NCBI GenBank assembly: GCA_043721195.1
Contig: JAYSRF010000108.1
Coordinates: forward strand, 21,341 to 85,340
Source: Fluviicola sp.
Lineage (GTDB): Bacteria > Bacteroidota > Bacteroidia > Flavobacteriales_D > Crocinitomicaceae
Reading direction: 5' to 3'
Length of the DNA stretch: 64,000 bases
This document shows positions 33,776-43,648 of the stretch, one piece after another. How positions within the stretch are numbered: position 1 is the first letter of the stretch; the number at the start of each line of letters is the position of its first letter. The notes beneath the pieces are model-generated. The model did not search any database. It was not told where the DNA came from and worked only from the letters and a program-made list of their open reading frames with translations. A program made the translations under genes and the position numbers.

Positions 33776-35047
33776 CTATTTCATGAGTTTTCCCCGAATT
33801 TTTTCAATACTCAATGCATGTAAACTCCCAATATGTGAAGTTGTCACGGGTGTTTTTTGCTCATGGTCTGTTTTTACTTGTTGACCAACTTCTACATAAG
33901 CTTCCCGGAACGAATGACCGTTTTGAACCAATTTAGCAACTGCATCAACACTAAAAATGCCTGAGTATGTCGGATTTGATAAATCAATCTGTTTCACTTC
34001 TAACTGCGGCATCATATACTTGAGCAAGTCTAAAATCAAATGTGATTGATCGATCGATCGAAAAAGTGGTTCTTTCAATAATTGAAAATCGCGGTGGTAT
34101 CCCGACACCAAATTTCTAGTAATTGCGTTGATTTCTGAGGGAATTGCGCTTAATTGATTGGATTTTGCACGAATCAATTCAAATACATCTGGATTTTTCT
34201 TGTGTGGCATGATGCTACTTCCCGTTGTCAGCGAATCTGGAAAGGAAATAAAACCGAAGTTTTGACACAGCATCCAAACACAATCGTTCGCTAATTTAGC
34301 TGTAGTTCCGCCCAATTGTGCCAACGAAAAAGCAACTGTTTGTTCCAGTTTACCGCGGTTCAATTGTGCGGCAATCGGATTGATTTTGAGTGCAGAAAAA
34401 CCCAAGCCATCTGTTGTGTGTTCTCGGTCAATCGGAAAAGTTGAACCATAACCAGCTGCTGTTCCCAATGGGTTTTGATCGGCTAATTGATAAGCGCAAT
34501 GCATCAATTGTAAATCATCAGCCAAACATTCTGCATACGCCGATAACCACATTCCAATACTAGACGGCATGGCAACTTGTGTATGTGTGTAGCCAGGAAT
34601 GTAATCGAACTCATGTACTAATGCTTTATCACAGAGAATGTTTCCCAACAACCGTGTTTTTTCCATTAAATGGGTGATCGCATCTTTCAAATACAATTGA
34701 AGAGCTGTTGCAACCTGATCATTGCGCGAACGGGCTGTATGTACTTTTTTACCTGTTTCCCCGTACCATTCCGTCAACCGAAATTCAATGTAGGAATGAA
34801 TGTCTTCCATTTCTGTTGGAATCTCAAATTCTTCCTGAGAAACGATCGTTTTTAATCGGTTTAATCCTTCGATTAATTGATGGTGTTCTGCTTCACTTAG
34901 CAATCCAACTGAAAACAACATGTTACTATGCGCAAGTGTTCCTTGCACATCAAATGGAGCTAATCGTTTGTCCATTTCACGGTCATTTCCAACGGTAAAT
35001 GCATGAACTTCTGCTGAAGTAAAAGCTCCTTTATCCCATAATTTCAT
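33776..35047 (-). CDS. argH: Argininosuccinate lyase
   Basis: MKLWDKG, EDIHSYIE, HTARSRNDQV, GSSIMPHKKNPD, GYHRD. Confidence 0.95.
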   Translation of the reverse strand: MKLWDKGAFTSAEVHAFTVGNDREMDKRLAPFDVQGTLAHSNMLFSVGLLSEAEHHQLIEGLNRLKTIVSQEEFEIPTEMEDIHSYIEFRLTEWYGETGKKVHTARSRNDQVATALQLYLKDAITHLMEKTRLLGNILCDKALVHEFDYIPGYTHTQVAMPSSIGMWLSAYAECLADDLQLMHCAYQLADQNPLGTAAGYGSTFPIDREHTTDGLGFSALKINPIAAQLNRGKLEQTVAFSLAQLGGTTAKLANDCVWMLCQNFGFISFPDSLTTGSSIMPHKKNPDVFELIRAKSNQLSAIPSEINAITRNLVSGYHRDFQLLKEPLFRSIDQSHLILDLLKYMMPQLEVKQIDLSNPTYSGIFSVDAVAKLVQNGHSFREAYVEVGQQVKTDHEQKTPVTTSHIGSLHALSIEKIRGKLMK

Positions 35048-36086
35048 ATTGCAATTGTTTTATGAACGTTTTGTAGAGGTCTATTCCACGTTCTAATTCG
35101 TATTCATAAATGTATTCGTCTGCAGTGTGTGAGCGTTCCGATTCGCCAATCCCTAATTTGATAGATGGCCATGGCATCAGAGCTTGATCGCTCATGGTAG
35201 GTGATCCATAACAACTGATTTGTAATGCTGTTGCGGTCTTTTGAAGCACATGTCCAGCAGGTAAAGAGGATGGCGATAAACGCATAGAACGTGCGACTAA
35301 TTTAGAAGAACAAATTGCTTGTAATTCTTCCAAGATTTGTATGTGTGTATAATATTCGTTTAAGCGTACATCAATCGTAAATCGACATTCATCTGGAATA
35401 ACATTGTGTTGTGTTCCACTATTGATCATTGTTACATTCGTGTTCACTGGACCTAGTAAATCGGAGTAGTTCGTAAAGCAATACGATCTAATTTTTTGAA
35501 TGTCATCCAATGCCAGATAAAGCGCATTTTTTCCTGAGTTTCGAGCAGCATGTCCCGCTTCACCTGTCGCAATGGCATCAATGACCAACAATCCTTTTTC
35601 AGCAATGGCAATTTTTCCGCCAGTTGGTTCGCCCACAATCGCCATGTGAATCGTTCCTAATTTGTCTCGGATCAATTCAAATCCATTTACACCACTGTTT
35701 TCTTCTTCAGCTGATGCACAAAACACGAGGTTGAAGGGAAGTTTTTGGTGATGAAAATGGAGAAATGTATGCAACAATCCAATCAAAGAAGCACCCGCAT
35801 CATTGATTCCCAAACCAATGAGTTGATTTCCCTTTTGTGTAAATTGATAAGGAGGGTATGTCCATTCTTTTCCCGGTTTTACTGTATCTAAATGGGAATT
35901 GAGAAGCACAGTTGGATGTGCTTGTTCAAAATGGGTTGACGTGGCCCAAACATTATTGTTCAATCGATTTGTTTGAATTCCACAAAATTGCAGCCGTTGT
36001 TCCATCCAATCTGCAACAGCATGTTCTTGTCCCGAAAGTGATGGAATGTTAACCAATTCTATTAAATCAGCTAAAGCGCTTTTCAT
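35031..36086 (-). CDS. argE: M20 deacylase (ArgE-like, probably acts on N-acylcitrulline)
   Basis: LNSHLDTV, GINDAG, SAEEE, IVGEPT, GHAAR, RSHTADE; within the arg operon. Confidence 0.85.
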   Translation of the reverse strand: MKSALADLIELVNIPSLSGQEHAVADWMEQRLQFCGIQTNRLNNNVWATSTHFEQAHPTVLLNSHLDTVKPGKEWTYPPYQFTQKGNQLIGLGINDAGASLIGLLHTFLHFHHQKLPFNLVFCASAEEENSGVNGFELIRDKLGTIHMAIVGEPTGGKIAIAEKGLLVIDAIATGEAGHAARNSGKNALYLALDDIQKIRSYCFTNYSDLLGPVNTNVTMINSGTQHNVIPDECRFTIDVRLNEYYTHIQILEELQAICSSKLVARSMRLSPSSLPAGHVLQKTATALQISCYGSPTMSDQALMPWPSIKLGIGESERSHTADEYIYEYELERGIDLYKTFIKQLQYEIMG

Positions 36087-36853
36087 TGGATCACGAGTTT
36101 GGTTCCTGAATGAAGCTGGTCGAATCGGCTAATGTGAACCGTTTTTGCACCTAATTTCAAGGCATTTATTCCACATTCGAGTTTGGGCAACATGCCTGAA
36201 TGAATGGCCCCTTCTTTTTTCAAATGTTCGATTTTTTCTTCTGATAGTATTGCTATTACTGAGTTTTCATCAGAAATATCGCGCAATACTCCTCCAAATT
36301 CAAAGGCATAAATCACAGAAACTTCACCCATTTCTTGCAGTACTTTCGAAAGAAAAAGCGTGATGGAATCGGCATTGGTGTTCAGCAAACTGCCCGAATC
36401 AATATCATAACTCAAGGCGCTAATCACTGGACACATTCCATCCAACAACAAATTACGGAGCAGTGGAGCTAATTCAGAATCGAATAGAGGATCACCCACC
36501 CAACCAAAATCAATGGGATGTACTGATCGTTTTTTTGCAGGGATTAGTTTTCCATCAGCACCAGATAATCCAATTGCTTGAACCCCCAAATGTTGTAAAC
36601 CTGCCACCAGTTGTTTATTGATACCGCTGTAAACTAGTGTTGCAATCTCCAGTAATTCCGCAGAAGTAACGCGTCGACCATCGATGAATTCGGAAGTAAC
36701 ACCGAGTTTTTTTGCCCAATTGCTCGTTGTTTTTCCGCCACCATGAACAAGGATTTTTCTTCCTTCTATTGCTTGGAATGCAGTTAAAAATGCACTACGA
36801 TGTTGTGGATTTTCTAAGATTGTACCACCTATTTTTATAATCGTTGTTTTCAT
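36083..36853 (-). CDS. argB: N-acylglutamate kinase
   Basis: IIKIGG, LVHGGGK, DGRRVT, NTNADS, GMLPKL. Confidence 0.92.
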   Translation of the reverse strand: MKTTIIKIGGTILENPQHRSAFLTAFQAIEGRKILVHGGGKTTSNWAKKLGVTSEFIDGRRVTSAELLEIATLVYSGINKQLVAGLQHLGVQAIGLSGADGKLIPAKKRSVHPIDFGWVGDPLFDSELAPLLRNLLLDGMCPVISALSYDIDSGSLLNTNADSITLFLSKVLQEMGEVSVIYAFEFGGVLRDISDENSVIAILSEEKIEHLKKEGAIHSGMLPKLECGINALKLGAKTVHISRFDQLHSGTKLVIQ

Positions 36854-37782
36854 GCTGAAAGGATTTCATGTAAAACCGCTTGCGCTGCCCAAATACGGTT
36901 TTCAGCTTGTGTATAGACAATGGATTGATCGATGACTTCATCGGTTGCAACCACATTTCTGCGAATCGGTAAACAGTGCATGAACGATCCGTTGTTGGTC
37001 AGCTTCATTTTTTGTTGGTCAATTGTCCAGTGATCAAATCCTTCCAATCGTTGTCCGTAATGCGTTACGCTGCTCCAATTTTTGCAATACACAATATCGG
37101 CATTCGCAAGCGCTTCTTCTTGATTGTACGTTACCGTTGCATAGTTTGCAAATTCTTGATCCAATTCATAGCCGGGAGGATGCGTTAACCACACATCTGC
37201 ATCTAAAAAGTGTGACCATTCCAAAAAAGAATTCACCACTGCTTGGGGCAAACATTTTGGGTGAGGGGCCCACGTAACGGCAATTTTTGGTTTGCGCAAA
37301 CCCAATTCTGCAATGGTGGCAACATCTGTCAATGATTGTAAGGGGTGACGAATTGCCGATTCCAAAGAAATAACAGGTTTAGTGCTATACTGAAGACACG
37401 CTTTGAGAATTTTTTCGTTGTAATCTTCCGTTTTGGAAGTCAATGATGGAAATGAACGAACCGCTAAAATATCGGTGTAAGAACTTAAAACACGAATCGC
37501 ATCTTGAATATGTTCTTGTTCATCTCCGTTCATGATAGCACCAGGTTCGGTTTCTAATTTCCAAGCTTGATTCACATCTAGAACTGAAACAGTCATGCCT
37601 AAATTGTAGGCTGCCGCTTGCGTGCTCATGCGTGAACGTAAACTTGGATTGAAAAAGAGCATGGATAGATTTTTACCAACTCTGAATAATGGCTGTTGTG
37701 TGTTCTTCATTTTCAGCACTTTTTCAATTAATCGGGGGACATCTTGAACGTCAGAAACAGCCGTAAATTGATTCATTTTCAT
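36850..37782 (-). CDS. argF': N-acyl(acetyl/succinyl)ornithine carbamoyltransferase (ArgF')
   Basis: FNPSLRSR, AWKLE, RHPLQ, TWAPHPKCLPQAV, FMHCLPIRRN: AOTCase/SOTCase signature, not canonical OTC. Confidence 0.9.
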   Translation of the reverse strand: MKMNQFTAVSDVQDVPRLIEKVLKMKNTQQPLFRVGKNLSMLFFNPSLRSRMSTQAAAYNLGMTVSVLDVNQAWKLETEPGAIMNGDEQEHIQDAIRVLSSYTDILAVRSFPSLTSKTEDYNEKILKACLQYSTKPVISLESAIRHPLQSLTDVATIAELGLRKPKIAVTWAPHPKCLPQAVVNSFLEWSHFLDADVWLTHPPGYELDQEFANYATVTYNQEEALANADIVYCKNWSSVTHYGQRLEGFDHWTIDQQKMKLTNNGSFMHCLPIRRNVVATDEVIDQSIVYTQAENRIWAAQAVLHEILSA

Positions 37783-38927
37783 GCGTTTTCAAGTAAGTTG
37801 TTTGTTACTAAAACGGTTTCAAATGTTGATAGAAACTCTTCCATTTCTTCCTGTTTAATCGTCAATGGAGGTAATAAGCGCAAGGTAAAAGGGCAAGCGG
37901 AAGAACCAGTTACTATTCCAGCTAAGAGCAGTTGTTCTTGGATGACGGTGGCTTTGATTTTCAACCGAATTCCAAGCATAAGTCCACGACCACGAATTGC
38001 TTCTACGCCATCGATTTCAAGCAGTTTGTTTTTTAATAGTTCCCCAGCTTCACGTGCTTTTTCCATCCATTTACCTGCTTCCAACTCATCCAAAACGGCT
38101 TTCATGGCAGCGCACGCAAGGTAACTTCCACCGAAAGTTGTTCCCAATTGTCCTTTTATGGCTGGAATTTTTTCATGAACCAAGACTCCAGCAACTGGAA
38201 AGCCATTCCCAATTCCTTTTGCCATGGTGACTAAATCAGGTATGATGTTCCAGTGTTGAAATGCAAAATAGGTTCCCGTTCGACCACAACCACTTTGAAT
38301 TTCATCGGCAATCAATAACGTTTCGGTTTTTTGACAGGTTGTTTTTAAAACATTCCAAACAGCTTCACTTGCTTCAAAAACGCCTGCAACTCCTTGAATT
38401 CCTTCAATGATAACGGCAGCATATTCGCGTGTTAAAAGCAATTTTTTTAAACCTTCAGCATCATTCAAATCAACAAAATCTTGCGTTAGCATTTCGCCAT
38501 AAGGTGAACGAATACTCGCATTATCTGTCACAGCGAGCGCGCCAATTGTTCGACCGTGAAATGCGCCTTTGAATGCTAAAATTTTGGATCGTTTGGTATA
38601 AAAAGAAGCAATTTTTAAAACATTTTCATTCGCTTTTGCTCCACTATTGCATAAAAATAGATCGTGGTTGTTTAGTCCCGAAATACGTCCAAGAATTTCA
38701 GCCAATGTTGCTTGTTCGTGAATCGTAACCGCATTGGAATAATAGGAAATTTGACTCAATTGGTTGGTTAGAGCGCCTGTCCAACGTGGATGATTGTGTC
38801 CAATAGAGATAACACCATGACCACCATAAAAATCGAGGAATGGTTGCGCATTTTCGTCTAGTAAAGTTGCGCCATTTGCAGAAACAAAAGCCAGTTTCCA
38901 AGGATGGTATACATCAAAATTTTTCAT
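37779..38927 (-). CDS. argD: N-acylornithine aminotransferase
   Basis: DFYGGHGVISIGH, FHGRT, IADEIQSG, TMAKGIGNG, TTFGGSYL. Confidence 0.92.
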   Translation of the reverse strand: MKNFDVYHPWKLAFVSANGATLLDENAQPFLDFYGGHGVISIGHNHPRWTGALTNQLSQISYYSNAVTIHEQATLAEILGRISGLNNHDLFLCNSGAKANENVLKIASFYTKRSKILAFKGAFHGRTIGALAVTDNASIRSPYGEMLTQDFVDLNDAEGLKKLLLTREYAAVIIEGIQGVAGVFEASEAVWNVLKTTCQKTETLLIADEIQSGCGRTGTYFAFQHWNIIPDLVTMAKGIGNGFPVAGVLVHEKIPAIKGQLGTTFGGSYLACAAMKAVLDELEAGKWMEKAREAGELLKNKLLEIDGVEAIRGRGLMLGIRLKIKATVIQEQLLLAGIVTGSSACPFTLRLLPPLTIKQEEMEEFLSTFETVLVTNNLLENA

Positions 38928-39880
38928 ACATAATTCGGTTTAAATTGAAGCCCTGTTGTTTCTGGAAAACCAAAACGGATATTCATGTTTTGAATGGCTT
39001 GTCCAGCAGCTCCTTTGAGTAAATTGTCAATGATACTTGTGACGAATAAAACGCCGTCAATCACACGTGGTTGAATCATACAATAATTGGTTCCAACTAC
39101 TTGTTTTAAATCCAATTCTTCTTCCGTGATAAGAGTAAATGCTGCGTCTTTATAATACGTTTTATAGCATTTGACAGCTTCATCTTGCGACATAGTAGTG
39201 GGTGTATATAGCGTTGCAAAAATGCCGCGTGTAAAGGATCCGCGTAAAGGTGTAAACCACAATTTTGGGAAATCCAAATCTCCTTGTTTTTTAGCGGTTT
39301 GCTGACCATTGTGAATGAGTTCAAGTTCGTGTTGATGCGCAAAAACCTTGTAACTTGACACATTGTTTTCTCGCCACGTAAAATGACTACTTGCTTGTAA
39401 TTCTTGTCCTGCTCCAGACGATCCAGTGAGTGCATGAATGTGCCAATCGTTTGCTTGAAAACCAAGTGTTGGAAGCATTCCTAATTGAATCGCTGTAGCA
39501 AAACAACCTGGATTGGCAATGCGATTATTCAAGAGTGAACGATTCAATTCTGGTAGACCGTAAACAAATTCCGAACTAGTGCGAAAGTCCATACTCAGAT
39601 CAATAATCAGCACATTTTCTGAAATGGGATTTTCGGATAAAAACTGTTTGGAAAACCCATGACCACCACATAAAAAGAGGACATCGTAGTTGTTGTTTTC
39701 AAATTTGCTAAAGACCAAATCGTTTGGAATCACAGGATCTTTATGAAAAACAGAAACGGATTTCCCGAGTTGACTCGAACTCACAGCTTGAGTAAGTTCT
39801 ACGAATGGATGACGAGCCAAACAACCGATTAATTCGCGGGCAACATATCCTGCTGCTCCTATGATTGCTACTTTTTTCAT
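38924..39880 (-). CDS. argC: N-acyl-gamma-glutamyl-phosphate reductase
   Basis: Start MKKVAIIGAAGYV at 39880 (ATGA overlap with argG); IANPGCFAT, GSSGAG, DNLLKGAAGQA. Confidence 0.95.
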   Translation of the reverse strand: MKKVAIIGAAGYVARELIGCLARHPFVELTQAVSSSQLGKSVSVFHKDPVIPNDLVFSKFENNNYDVLFLCGGHGFSKQFLSENPISENVLIIDLSMDFRTSSEFVYGLPELNRSLLNNRIANPGCFATAIQLGMLPTLGFQANDWHIHALTGSSGAGQELQASSHFTWRENNVSSYKVFAHQHELELIHNGQQTAKKQGDLDFPKLWFTPLRGSFTRGIFATLYTPTTMSQDEAVKCYKTYYKDAAFTLITEEELDLKQVVGTNYCMIQPRVIDGVLFVTSIIDNLLKGAAGQAIQNMNIRFGFPETTGLQFKPNYV

Positions 39881-41088
39881 ATTGGTACCTCTGTTGAAAG
39901 TGCATGCCACATCTTTGTTTGCACACAGGTAATTTTGATAAATCCTTTCGCATCTTCGGCTGTCCATGCTGTTGTTCCTTCGCCATAGGCAGCAACTTTG
40001 GAATTGAGCAAATCGTTTTTTGAAACAACTCCACACAATTCAAAACGGTGCGGATAAAGCACTACTTCTACCGTTCCTGATACGCGTTGTTGACTTTGAG
40101 CTAAGTGTGCTTCCAAATCGCGCATTACTGGATCCATGAATTGACCTTCGTGAAACAAGGTTCCATACCATTCACTTTGCGGTTTTTTGAGTTGCAATTG
40201 CCATTTCGTAAGTGTGTGTTTTTCCAGTAATTGATGTGCTTTTATGAGAATGAGTGGAGCGGCTGCTACAAAAGCGATCCGTCCTTTGATTCCAACAATG
40301 GTATCTCCCACATGCATGTCACGCCCAATTCCAAACGGTCGTGCTAATTGGTCCAATTGTTTGATCAACTCAACAGGATGGAGCGATTGCCCATTCAATG
40401 CTACTGGTTCACCTTTATGAAAATCAATAACAACCGTTTTAGGCTGATTTTCAGTTAGTGGATAGGGCCAAGCAGCAGCTGGAAGTGCTAAATGAGAAGT
40501 CAATGTTTCCACACCACCAATACTTGTTCCCCACAACCCTTCGTTGATCGAATAGCTGGCAGATGAAGCGTTAATTGGAACATTCCACTCCTTTAATTGA
40601 TCTATTTCTGCTTGTCGTGAAAGTTGCAAATCTCGAATGGGCGTAAGAATCCCAATTGTAGGAATGAGTGCCTGAAATACTAAGTCAAATCGCACTTGAT
40701 CATTTCCAGCTCCTGTACTTCCATGTGCAACAAAATCAACCTTTTTTTCGATTGCTAATGCAGCAATTGCTTTGGCTTGAAAAACACGTTCTGAACTTAC
40801 TGATAGCGGATAAGAATCGTTTTTTAGCACATTTCCAAAGAGCAGAAATTTCAATCCGTTGGTATAATAATCTGCGCTAACATCAATTGTGGTGTGCGAT
40901 GTCACTTGCATGGATTGTGCTTTTTCTTCGATTTCAGCAACTTCTTTTTCTGAAAAACAACCCGTGTTGATGAATACAGTATGAACGATGAGATTGATTT
41001 CGCGACGCAAATAATGAGCGCAAAATGTGGTGTCTAATCCTCCAGAAAAGGCTAATAAAACGGATTGTTGTGGTGTTGCTATTTTCAT
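39877..41088 (-). CDS. argG: Argininosuccinate synthase
   Basis: LAFSGGLDT, HGSTGAGNDQVRF, YSINEGLWG, VGIKGR. Confidence 0.95.
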   Translation of the reverse strand: MKIATPQQSVLLAFSGGLDTTFCAHYLRREINLIVHTVFINTGCFSEKEVAEIEEKAQSMQVTSHTTIDVSADYYTNGLKFLLFGNVLKNDSYPLSVSSERVFQAKAIAALAIEKKVDFVAHGSTGAGNDQVRFDLVFQALIPTIGILTPIRDLQLSRQAEIDQLKEWNVPINASSASYSINEGLWGTSIGGVETLTSHLALPAAAWPYPLTENQPKTVVIDFHKGEPVALNGQSLHPVELIKQLDQLARPFGIGRDMHVGDTIVGIKGRIAFVAAAPLILIKAHQLLEKHTLTKWQLQLKKPQSEWYGTLFHEGQFMDPVMRDLEAHLAQSQQRVSGTVEVVLYPHRFELCGVVSKNDLLNSKVAAYGEGTTAWTAEDAKGFIKITCVQTKMWHALSTEVPI

Positions 41089-41660
41089 GATGTATGCGTA
41101 TTTTTTTTAATGTGAATGATTGTTTTTGTGCTTTCGTTCGGGTCCAAAAGCATTCCTGTACACAAGCAATGTTTTCTGCCTGTTCGTTTGAGAATGTCAT
41201 TGTTTACACAACCGCTGCATCCTTTCCAAAACTGTTCATCGTCTGTTAATTCGGAGAATGTAACGGGTTTGTATCCTAAATCGGAATTGATTTTCATGAC
41301 CGCAAGACTGGTGGTAATTCCAAAGATTTTGGCAGTTGGATATTTTGCTTGTGACAACGCTAAAATCTTGGTTTTGATTTGTTTAGCGAGACCAGTTTTC
41401 CTATAGTCTTCGTGAACGATTAATCCAGAATTCGCAACAAATTGTTCGTGTCCCCACGATTCGATGTAACAAAATCCGATTGGTTTTTCGTCAAATAGTG
41501 CAATAACCGCCTTGCCTTCGATCATTTTTTGAGTCAGGTATTCTGGCGATCGTTTAGCGATTCCAGTTCCCCGTTTTGTTGCAGCATCTGCCATTAATTG
41601 GCAAAAAAAGTCTGCGTGACCAACATGTGAACTGTCAGCCACAACAATAGAAATAGCCAT
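41085..41660 (-). CDS. GNAT N-acyltransferase, probable N-acylglutamate synthase (first gene of arg operon)
   Basis: RGTGIAKRSPEY, FVANSGLIV...YRKTGLA, FSELTDDEQFWKGC...CLCTGM; operon position. Confidence 0.8.
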   Translation of the reverse strand: MAISIVVADSSHVGHADFFCQLMADAATKRGTGIAKRSPEYLTQKMIEGKAVIALFDEKPIGFCYIESWGHEQFVANSGLIVHEDYRKTGLAKQIKTKILALSQAKYPTAKIFGITTSLAVMKINSDLGYKPVTFSELTDDEQFWKGCSGCVNNDILKRTGRKHCLCTGMLLDPNESTKTIIHIKKNTHTS

Positions 41661-41709
41661 TTCTGTTGTGAATTAAAATGAAATAAATAAAAAGGAATTT
41701 TTCAAAACG

Positions 41710-41728
41710 GCAGAGTACGTAACTCCGC
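41710..41728 (-). terminator. Putative attenuator hairpin in the arg leader
   Basis: Minus strand GCGGAGT-TACGT-ACTCTGC followed by CGTTTTG; U-tract is weak. Confidence 0.45.
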
Positions 41729-41739
41729 ATAACATATCT

Positions 41740-41805
41740 TTACCCCAAGGGGCGTCTACGTCTTAGAACGACGGATCTTAACTGATATGTTGTTGTTTTT
41801 TTCAT
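41740..41805 (-). CDS. Putative arginine leader peptide MKKTTTYQLRSVVLRRRRPLG (21 aa, not in ORF track)
   Basis: ATG 10 nt after the -7 promoter box; five Arg codons, four consecutive (AGA CGT AGA CGC); lies upstream of the arg operon. Confidence 0.75.
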   Translation of the reverse strand: MKKTTTYQLRSVVLRRRRPLG

Positions 41806-41814
41806 TGAATGGCA

Positions 41815-41822
41815 CAAAAGTA
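41815..41822 (-). promoter_or_regulatory. -7 promoter element of the arg leader/operon
   Basis: TACTTTTG on the minus strand followed by TGCC. Confidence 0.7.
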
Positions 41823-42223
41823 ATGGACTTATTTAGATAAACAACAGAATATCAACGTTTCATAAAATGTTCTTTGTTGGTTTATTTAATAAGAGAAGAT
41901 AATTAATTGAAATCGAAGCATTTAACTAAATCGATTTTATGTAATTTTTTTAACAAAAACACAATTGTTTGTGGATTCTGAGTGTTGAGTGTGCGTGTTT
42001 TTTCACCAGCAGGACTCAAGGATCTCAACTTTTTTAGTGCCATTTGCTTAAATTGGTTTTCGTTCTTCCTTGTTTTCTTTGTGAAAGGTTAAATCTCCTA
42101 TTAAATACTGAGTTTTCGGGAATTTTCATTTCAAAATGTGGAGGAGTACTTGTTGTTTTTTATAAAAATTATGTATTATTGTGGTGCATAAACAATTGAT
42201 TACTATTCACATAAACAGCCAAT

Positions 42224-43648
42224 ATGACAACACCTTCTACTCAGTCTAAAGTCAGGCTTGTCAACGAAAAGAACAAAGTCACCATTCTTCAGCGTATCGG
42301 CGTTATCATGATTATTGCTGGATTACTCGGTCTGATTACCTCTTTGTTCTTTCATTCGGATGTCAGTAAAGATGACCATCCAGATGCAGCATCCGCACCA
42401 GTTGCAGCGATCTCTTTTTTCATCACGATGCTTGGCGTTGCTTTCGCGTTCCCGACTATGCTGCGAGGCAAAGAAGGCATCAGCACGATGCGCATTGTTG
42501 TGTTCATGATGGCCAATGTGATCTGCATGCTACTGATCAAATTCGGTTGGCAGGTCAACAATTTACAGGAAATCGGGTTAGACGAATGGTGGATGGGCGT
42601 GATTGCATTTGTGTTTGGCGCGAAGGCAACGCAGAGTTATTTTGAGAGTAAATTGGCAGTGCCACGTGATACCAAAAATGGTAATCCAACTTCTTTGGGA
42701 AATACCCCTGAAAATTCCGCTACAGGAGTCACTTACACACATGCGGAAATTGCCCGATTTGCGGTGGCACAGAACGAGCAAAACCTGCGCATACAATTCC
42801 CAAATATTGTTTCTGTCAGTGATACGGTCGATAATCTTTCGAAACCGAATTCGCATGTCGTCGCGTTGTATTTGAAAGATGATAATACCTCGCGCATTCC
42901 TGCTCAACTGGAGGCAAAGATGCCAGATGGTAGTGTGCAGAGTATTGCGACGGAGGTGATATCCGAAAGCGGTGATGCAACTCCTCATTTAAACCAGGGG
43001 GATACCGTTGCAGATGTCAGAGATGCGAGTTATATCGGTTCCATTTGTTGTGCTGTTCAATCGATTAGCAACCCCTCTATTAAAGGAATTGTTACTTCAG
43101 CTCACATCTTCACCCATGGCAATTACGATACGGACAATAATAGTGTTCTCAGTGCTGATCTTCGAAGGGATGTTTTATTAGAGGGCAAAGCACAGGCAAA
43201 ATGGTTTTATAAACAGATGCTTCCCGATCAGGACTTCATCGTTGCAAAATTGAATGATGGAATATCAGAAGACGATATTACCAATCTCAAACGTTTTAAC
43301 AACCGCTATTATGATATCACAGACGCAGATGTCCAAAATCGTACAGTCGTTTCGATCCTCGCTCATGGCGGTAAGAAAACGGATGCTTATATTCTGGATA
43401 AGAACATCAATTACCCTTTCAAATATGCGAACGGTAGCTTTTTCAAAACAAACATTATTTTGATAGGCAACACTAAAATCCGAAAAAACTCACTTCCTGT
43501 TTCTACTAGCGGAGATTCAGGAAGTCCTGTATTTGTGACAATTAACAACGAGGATCACTTAGTCGGAATCTTGTTGGGATCCAATCAAAAATTCACCTTC
43601 GTACTGCCGGTGAAAGACACAATCTCTAATGGATTTAATCTCATCTAA
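42224..43648 (+). CDS. Membrane-anchored trypsin-like serine protease (4 TM + NAL1-like prodomain + S1-type domain)
   Basis: Four hydrophobic segments in the first ~140 aa; triad motifs VTSAHIF (His), QDFIVAK (Asp), SGDSGSP (Ser). Confidence 0.75.
   Translation: MTTPSTQSKVRLVNEKNKVTILQRIGVIMIIAGLLGLITSLFFHSDVSKDDHPDAASAPVAAISFFITMLGVAFAFPTMLRGKEGISTMRIVVFMMANVICMLLIKFGWQVNNLQEIGLDEWWMGVIAFVFGAKATQSYFESKLAVPRDTKNGNPTSLGNTPENSATGVTYTHAEIARFAVAQNEQNLRIQFPNIVSVSDTVDNLSKPNSHVVALYLKDDNTSRIPAQLEAKMPDGSVQSIATEVISESGDATPHLNQGDTVADVRDASYIGSICCAVQSISNPSIKGIVTSAHIFTHGNYDTDNNSVLSADLRRDVLLEGKAQAKWFYKQMLPDQDFIVAKLNDGISEDDITNLKRFNNRYYDITDADVQNRTVVSILAHGGKKTDAYILDKNINYPFKYANGSFFKTNIILIGNTKIRKNSLPVSTSGDSGSPVFVTINNEDHLVGILLGSNQKFTFVLPVKDTISNGFNLI

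Follow-up and report, generated by a model that had tools for sequence, protein, structure and literature searches.

A conserved arginine-codon leader open reading frame upstream of the arg operon in Fluviicola (Bacteroidota), a putative leader-peptide element in place of the ArgR repressor

The textbook regulator of bacterial arginine biosynthesis is the repressor ArgR; leader attenuation has been recorded for His, Trp, Thr, Leu, Ile/Val and Phe. In the classical attenuators, including trpL, hisL, thrL, leuL, ilvL and pheL of Escherichia coli and Salmonella and the Bacteroid-trp leader (RF01692), an open reading frame (ORF) with cognate codons lies directly before a biosynthetic operon and is followed by hairpins. 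A similar arrangement is found in a 64,000-nucleotide (nt) stretch of Fluviicola sp. (GenBank assembly GCA_043721195.1, contig JAYSRF010000108.1, positions 21,341 to 85,340), hereafter called the window. On its minus strand, a 21-codon ORF with a terminal run of four Arg codons precedes an eight-gene arg operon, the first gene of which encodes a GNAT acyltransferase (GNAT). Comparison with related genomes suggests that the ORF belongs to a leader-peptide element that regulates arginine biosynthesis and would substitute for the ArgR repressor; the probability of this reading is estimated at about 0.75. Stalling of the ribosome that depends on the supply of Arg-tRNA is well supported as the putative sensor by the same comparison.

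The arginine leader is not identical to any of the described systems. It differs from the classical attenuators since no competition between a terminator and an antiterminator is predicted, and the hairpin that could act as a terminator is weak or has no U tract behind it; moreover, its Arg codons make up the 5' arm of another hairpin, which includes the stop codon. The Rho-dependent leaders (tnaC of E. coli, speFL, and mgtL/mgtA of Salmonella) are similar in the predicted stall at the ORF end, the lack of a strong intrinsic terminator, the G-poor spacer and the presence of a Rho gene; whereas their stall is caused by a ligand that binds the nascent chain, that of the arginine leader would be caused by a shortage of charged tRNA. 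In Staphylococcus aureus, the small Arg-codon (AGA/AGG) upstream ORF (uORF) rbfL senses the arginine supply and occludes the ribosome-binding site of a biofilm regulator (PMC13009471). However, rbfL represses this regulator when arginine is scarce (PMC13009471); the target here is an arg operon starting 82 nt downstream of the leader ORF, and the expected sign is opposite. The fungal arginine attenuator peptide (arg-2/CPA1 uORF) also controls an arginine-biosynthesis gene in response to arginine, whereas its conserved nascent chain senses free arginine and has no Arg-codon run; only the Arg codons are kept family-wide in the present leaders. The ArgR/ARG-box systems of E. coli, Bacillus and Bacteroides act on the same pathway, and the argR gene of Bacteroidales occupies the position of the leader; however, none of the leader-bearing genomes tested, including that of the window, has ArgR. 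For F. psychrophilum, a transcriptome study (PMC9723704) refers in general to attenuation by leader peptides before amino-acid operons. Full-text literature searches gave no description of a bacterial arg biosynthetic operon under the control of an Arg-codon leader, and the element appears to be undescribed.

The GNAT gene was present in 15 of the 151 sampled genomes of the window's family. Upstream of 12 of these 15 GNAT-arg operons is an ORF with 2-5 Arg codons, the run of which lies 2-5 codons before the stop. The family leaders include MSNTHTYQFAVLAIRNRRPQGC, MKNNYTYPSFLIRVERRRYPLG and peptides ending with SPRRPLA, PRRNRRPLRS, PRIRRNRPV and IRRPLGL (here and below, peptides are written up to the last residue before the stop codon). 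Outside the Arg run the peptides are variable; within it the codons AGA, AGG, CGU, CGC, CGA and CGG swap synonymously between relatives, and Lys is never substituted. Every relative inspected has the TAnnTTTG promoter box 9-13 nt upstream of the start codon of its leader. The Arg-specific run, its synonymous variation, its position in the last few codons and the promoter fixed at the start codon together point to selection on the decoding by tRNA-Arg. By the same comparison, the leader ORF is probably translated, the ribosome may stall on it, and the operon would be expressed when arginine is scarce.

A covariance model of 8 family sequences, which covers the Arg codons, the hairpin at the ORF end (H1), the linker and the following hairpin (H2), was run on 401 family genomes. 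A single match per genome was obtained, and all the strong matches except one were directly upstream of a GNAT homologue. Strong matches were found in 16 further or identical genomes of 5 genera, and the leaders of a further genus found by the model end with RRSDRRRRLLA, with no Pro. No second Arg leader was detected in the window's genome, where the model finds one site only; two other Arg-rich matches from a genome scan for a promoter plus ORF both lie inside coding regions and were rejected as leaders.

Leaders also occur in other families of the window's order (peptides ending with RPRSPRRL, VRRNRPVGV, VVRRP and RIRR) and across the class. At the class level GNAT was found in 145 of 401 genomes, most of 69 upstream regions contain an Arg-run leader, and the leader is present in at least 20 families. 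The species-genome scan revealed leaders ending with RRRP in Maribacter, Pricia, Cellulophaga, Zobellia, Sinomicrobium, Nonlabens and Robiginitalea; other leader-bearing Flavobacteriaceae and relatives are Formosa, Olleya, Polaribacter and Yeosuana, and the Cytophagales are represented by Splendidivirga, Cesiribacter, Siphonobacter, Marinoscillum, Dyadobacter and Larkinella. The same scan found the leader in Parapedobacter, Ginsengibacter and metagenome-assembled genomes of Balneola/Fodinibius. Enrichment was assessed for ORFs of 10-70 codons with RR within the last eight residues and an end at least 35 nt before GNAT. Such ORFs are upstream of GNAT in 54 of 94 cases; the reverse complement gives 18 and shuffles give 7.5 (maximum 14), and therefore the Arg-run ORF is beyond chance. 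The conserved Arg-rich uORFs upstream of GNAT-argG, proposed as a check in the original prediction, thus exist and reach far beyond the order.

The distribution of ArgR is complementary to that of the leader. Searches with the ArgR domains PF01316 and PF02863, which were positive in the controls E. coli, B. subtilis and Bacteroides thetaiotaomicron, gave no match above noise in the 99.9%-complete genome, so that the earlier observation of no argR in the window holds genome-wide. Nor was ArgR found in any of the 32 arg-operon genomes of the order, with or without a leader, or in any of the 43 leader-bearing class-level genomes. It was present in exactly 6 of 64 class-level genomes, namely those with argR directly upstream of GNAT and no leader; among named Bacteroidales this arrangement is found in Marinilabilia, Paludibacter, Saccharicrinis and Geofilum. 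The case for the leader as a functional substitute for the repressor rests most strongly on the mutual exclusivity of leader and ArgR. The two are strictly alternative across about 100 genomes, and the leader would explain repressor-less arginine regulation in a large and ecologically important group, the Flavobacteriia-, Cytophagia-, Sphingobacteriia- and Chitinophagia-like lineages.

The two hairpins are conserved as structures. In a 13-sequence alignment, compared with 500 shuffles and with registers slid by 1-3 columns, 87.6% of the H1 and H2 cells are paired (76.2 +/- 2.0% in shuffles, none of the 500 as high), and the covariation score is 0.463 (at most 0.157 for the slid registers). The last Arg codon and the Pro codon constitute the 5' arm of H1; its loop and 3' arm are composed of the Leu-Gly codons and the first base of the stop codon. 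The stem variants of H1 include GCCCC/GGGGU, AGACC/GGUCU, GACGCC/GGCGU and CGCC/GGCG. For H2, 92% of the cells are paired, three pairs have compensatory changes, and a pentaloop U-N-Y-G-N is kept across the class (UACGY, UCCGU, UUCGC, UGCGY and UAUGY).

Other structural features accompany these hairpins (Table 1). The linker between H1 and H2 is A/U-rich and 13 nt long, and its segment I' is predicted to form an 8-bp long-range helix with segment I of the leader ORF. The minimum free energy fold of each of the five genus members includes this I:I' helix, with sequences that differ between them, and its probability in the window sequence is P=0.97. The ACAUAU core of segment I is conserved in two reading frames (T-Y or H-I) across lineages, which argues for selection at the nucleic-acid (RNA or DNA) level. 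At the position of the small hairpin H0, the relatives have a hairpin of different sequence. The hairpin around the GNAT start codon is kept in the genus, and one of its pairs changes between A-U, G-U and G-C via a synonymous Ile codon; such a structure is unusual, as the start regions of Bacteroidia are normally unstructured. No Rfam 15 match was found in 41000-42400, where the hits were at chance level (E 0.17-7.7) and far below the gathering scores. Marine Flavobacteriaceae have a longer hairpin instead, with a loop UGAGU. In L148, L149, L193, L199, L202 and relatives, this different second hairpin is GGAAAU-AGGUGAGUCC-AUUUCC, about 50-70 nt upstream of GNAT. The loop AGGUGAGUCC is nearly invariant and contains a Shine-Dalgarno-like AGGUGA, and in those genomes the leader stop and the GNAT start are always 79-82 nt apart.

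Table 1. Positions of the leader features and of the downstream arg genes in the window.
Feature	Position	Strand	Remark
Bacteroidetes-type -7 promoter box TACTTTTG	41822-41815	-	matches consensus TAnnTTTG; end 9 nt 5' of leader ATG
Leader ORF, 21 codons plus stop, MKKTTTYQLRSVVLRRRRPLG	41805-41740	-	
Segment I, AACATATC / AACAUAUC, 5' strand of long-range helix I:I'	41791-41784	-	
Extra AGA, codon 10 of leader ORF	41778-41776	-	
H0, small variable hairpin CGTC...GACG within leader ORF	41759-41773	-	predicted fold
Four Arg codons AGA CGT AGA CGC, codons 15-18, presumed stall site	41763-41752	-	
Hairpin H1, GCCCCTTGGGGT (GCCCC-TTG-GGGT), at ORF end	41753-41742	-	covariation
Segment I', GATATGTT / GAUAUGUU, in H1-H2 linker, pairs with segment I	41738-41731	-	
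Hairpin H2, GCGGAGT-TACGT-ACTCTGC, 7 bp, -8.8 kcal/mol	41728-41710	-	
CGTTTTG tail (4 U) directly 3' of H2	41709-41703	-	
Spacer from H2 to GNAT, A/U-rich, G-poor, 49 nt	41661-41709	-	
Hairpin around GNAT start codon, CACAACAGAAATGGCTATTTCTATTGTTGTG / CACAACAGAAAUGGCUAUUUCUAUUGUUGUG	41640-41670	-	predicted in genus members
Eight-gene arg operon	33776..41660	-	neighbouring genes overlap by 4-17 nt
GNAT acyltransferase (first gene)	41660-41085	-	
argG	41088-39877	-	
argC	39880-38924	-	
argD	38927-37779	-	
N-acyl-ornithine carbamoyltransferase	37782-36850	-	
argB	36853-36083	-	
argE-like, ArgE/DapE-family deacylase	36086-35031	-	
argH	35047-33776	-	

The order and positions of the promoter, the 21-codon ORF, the tandem Arg codons, both hairpins and the spacer were as described in the original prediction, which also named an eight-gene arg operon; the genes downstream are GNAT, argG, argC, argD, carbamoyltransferase, argB, argE and argH. 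In Flavobacterium johnsoniae the TAnnTTTG consensus box is separated from the transcription start by 4-5 nt (PMC6847099). Given this spacing (PMC6847099) and a box 9 nt before the ATG, the transcript would be nearly leaderless, and transcription would begin a few bases before the start codon of the leader ORF. When charged tRNA-Arg is scarce, the ribosome would stall on the four terminal Arg codons, and the stalled ribosome would keep H1, which includes the last Arg and Pro codons and the stop codon, open. With a second ribosome queued behind it, the I:I' helix would also be kept open, and the operon would be expressed. When arginine is plentiful, the ribosome would terminate and leave, I:I', H0 and H1 would fold beside H2, and expression would be cut. 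Folding of modelled ribosome states is consistent with the opening steps: H1 was lost in all ribosome-bound states (ribosome on the Arg codons or at the stop codon), and I:I' was lost with a queued second ribosome or with a ribosome at the stop codon. Shine-Dalgarno pairing is not used in these Bacteroidia; together with the near-leaderless ORF, this makes the locus a compact test case for the coupling of translation and RNA fate in Bacteroidia.

Several results weigh against this leader-peptide reading. In the window sequence, H2 was predicted with P=0.99 in the free state, with the ribosome stalled at each Arg codon, in the stalled-plus-queued state and at the stop codon; it was also in the consensus fold of the genus alignment under every ribosome-footprint mask. 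No conserved pairing alternative to H2 was found in the masked genus-alignment and window folds. Because H2 is constant and has no conserved alternative, the link from stalling to output is unexplained by RNA folding. The predicted accessibility of the GNAT start codon was likewise equal in all ribosome states. As a terminator H2 would be poor, with -8.8 kcal/mol and 4 U against -15.9 (his) and -16.9 kcal/mol (ilv) and 6-8 U in the same genome. After H2, a U tract is missing in most relatives, and other genera show a small hairpin or A/C-rich sequence instead. For Rho, the C/G ratio of the leader bodies is a modest 1.5 overall and 1.75 in the window, the latter over only 36 nt, and no rut site is evident. 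Moreover, the Arg codons of the window's leader are common ones in the genome, and both ArgR and a recognisable leader are missing from about 15 of the 64 class-level genomes.

The same results bear on a classical trp/his-type attenuator, in which H2 and its U run would be an intrinsic terminator and a stall on the Arg codons would favour an antiterminator. The order of elements (an ORF with a cognate run, a hairpin and CGUUUUG) fits this explanation, I:I' resembles a 1:2 helix, and the genome contains His and Ile/Val attenuators of the classical type. Between genus members the H2 tail varies from UUUUUUG to CAGUUGA, and two same-genus species have H2 GUGGGGUUCCGUACUCCGCC followed by UUUUUUG, which is a good U tail. 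However, an attenuator of this type is unlikely: no antiterminator was found and H2 persists in all states and under all masks, it was not called in the scan for terminators, it is about half as stable as the his and ilv terminators, and the U tract is missing in most relatives. Another explanation is that the Arg-rich C-terminus (RRRRPLG, RRRP or PFFxRR) of the nascent peptide responds to free arginine or an intermediate of the pathway and arrests the ribosome at the stop codon or close to it, in the manner of the fungal arginine attenuator peptide, TnaC or SpeFL. The tails PFFPRR, PFFIRR and PFFRRR are kept in at least eight families despite synonymous changes, xRRRP tails are kept in marine Flavobacteriaceae, and a mechanism based on ribosome occupancy fits the absence of a classical RNA switch. 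The Pro-stop and Arg-stop endings also recall TnaC, which ends with RP, and SpeFL, which ends with FFNAR. Nevertheless, the Arg run is the sole constant family-wide; what follows it differs (PLG, PQGC, YPLG, PLA, PV, LLA, L or none), as do the residues before it, and the Pro and Gly codons are accounted for by the C- and G-rich arms of H1. Furthermore, an arrest induced by arginine would open H1 as starvation does, which is the wrong sign unless it is inverted by a further element. A nascent-peptide sensor is therefore rather improbable as the general explanation. The original prediction had named the RRRP nascent chain as an option; this is weakened, since Pro is absent in several lineages (RRRRLLA, RRL and RIRR), and survives for the sub-clades that keep RRRP or PFFxRR.

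It is very improbable that the locus is a structured cis-regulatory RNA, such as a riboswitch or a protein-binding element of H1 and H2, with the ORF being incidental. The covariation of H1 and H2, the U-N-Y-G-N pentaloop kept across the class and the nucleotide-level conservation of ACAUAU would agree with such an RNA. However, the ORF, its promoter-adjoining start and the Arg run persist where the sequences of H1 and H2 differ completely; hardly any unpaired nucleotides beyond the H2 loop are invariant, unlike in known aptamers, and Rfam has no match.

For the leader-peptide reading, the output mechanism is probably non-classical. A trp-type competition between terminator and antiterminator is not supported by the folding models, because they predict H2 whatever the position of the ribosome and a U tract is missing in most relatives. 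Of the original proposal that ribosome stalling regulates the operon, the conserved Arg-codon sensor in place of ArgR thus stood, and the trp-style switch did not. The caveat that the weak U tract leaves room for Rho-dependent or translational control was correct. Factor-dependent termination or pausing at or after H2 (by a factor such as Rho or NusG/NusA), blocked by ribosome occupancy, may be the most plausible output, at somewhat less than even odds. Rho is encoded in the genome (PF07497 match of 119.8 bits in a 708-aa open frame, contig C286:7605-7826); a large insertion is known in the Rho of Bacteroidetes, and the frame, which is far longer than enterobacterial Rho, is consistent with this. 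The spacer before GNAT is G-poor but U-rich. Control of mRNA decay or of GNAT translation is less probable, and weak intrinsic termination at H2 in the window's genus is slightly less probable again. As no antiterminator was found, the output step is a sharply posed question that lends itself to direct testing.

Other candidate output switches were rejected. The original prediction had noticed that the Arg codons contain ACGTA and the H2 loop its complement, TACGT. This complementarity is present in the window sequence; however, a functional kissing interaction (ACGUA with UACGU) is not supported, since leaders with AGR codons only (L011 and L012) cannot form the pairing. Pairings between the 5' arms or between the 3' arms of H1 and H2 are possible in some genus members with G-rich arms; by visual comparison they are unconserved in the genera with AGACC/GGUCU and GACGCC/GGCGU, and such alternative pairings of the arms were never chosen by folding. 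A regulated terminator made of H1 and a U-rich linker would respond with the wrong sign, and in the window the linker is not rich in U. Hungry-codon +1 frameshifting was also considered: the +1 frame of the window has no stop between the Arg run and a UAA that lies beyond H1 and H2, 15 nt ahead of the GNAT ATG (41740-41675, minus strand); in the relatives the first +1 stop lies -20 to +181 nt from the leader stop, without a pattern. A sequestration of the GNAT start codon that is released by stalling was rejected as well, because the hairpin exists and its predicted accessibility is unchanged between the states.

A wider reading can be put forward tentatively. ArgR-replacing, near-leaderless Arg-codon ORFs might govern arginine synthesis in most non-Bacteroidales Bacteroidia and in Balneolota, on a new platform where the occupancy of H1 beside a hairpin with a UNYGN loop decides the outcome, with no competition between terminator and antiterminator. 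In this wider reading, the decision could be made via Rho, RNase or another factor that reads the folded leader, and the conserved tails (RRRP and PFFxRR) could add nascent-chain arrest in some clades.

Some leaders have additional features. Tandem Arg-run leaders were found in Formosa algae, Olleya, Polaribacter, Yeosuana (2) and four others (L081, L083, L098 and L099). The first ORF of these, ending with RRRR, is about 225 nt upstream of GNAT and adjoins the promoter; the second, ending with RRP, is about 80 nt upstream of GNAT and has H1 and H2. A 45-residue leader, MKKxKLxFNFxSAADKxFxxxAVLF...VPFFPRR, is kept at full length in four class-level families (L086, L093, L094 and L119), and this conservation is much beyond the needs of a codon run. 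In many relatives (L011, L012, L016, L026, L028, L048, L070 and L101) the Arg run is written AGG-AGR, which creates a Shine-Dalgarno-like AGGAGG or AGGAGA inside the ORF. AGG is the rarest Arg codon of the window's genome (3.7%) and is absent from the window's leader.

The window's genome also contains His and Ile/Val leaders, which indicates that leader-peptide control is in use in this organism. The His leader MKMTQFLHHHHHLLC is located before hisG on the minus strand of contig C160, some 1.9 kb short of the end of the reverse-complemented contig; it begins 4 nt after a TAnnTTTG box and is followed by a strong terminator, AACCCGCUUGGCUUUCAAGCGGGUUUUUUG. The Ile/Val-rich leader MKTVNINIIQINVIVISDSALGLV, also with a strong terminator, precedes a branched-chain aminotransferase-like gene on contig C246 (minus strand). 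A second short ORF with its own terminator lies between this leader and the aminotransferase-like gene, and from its sequence the region looks like a tandem attenuator.

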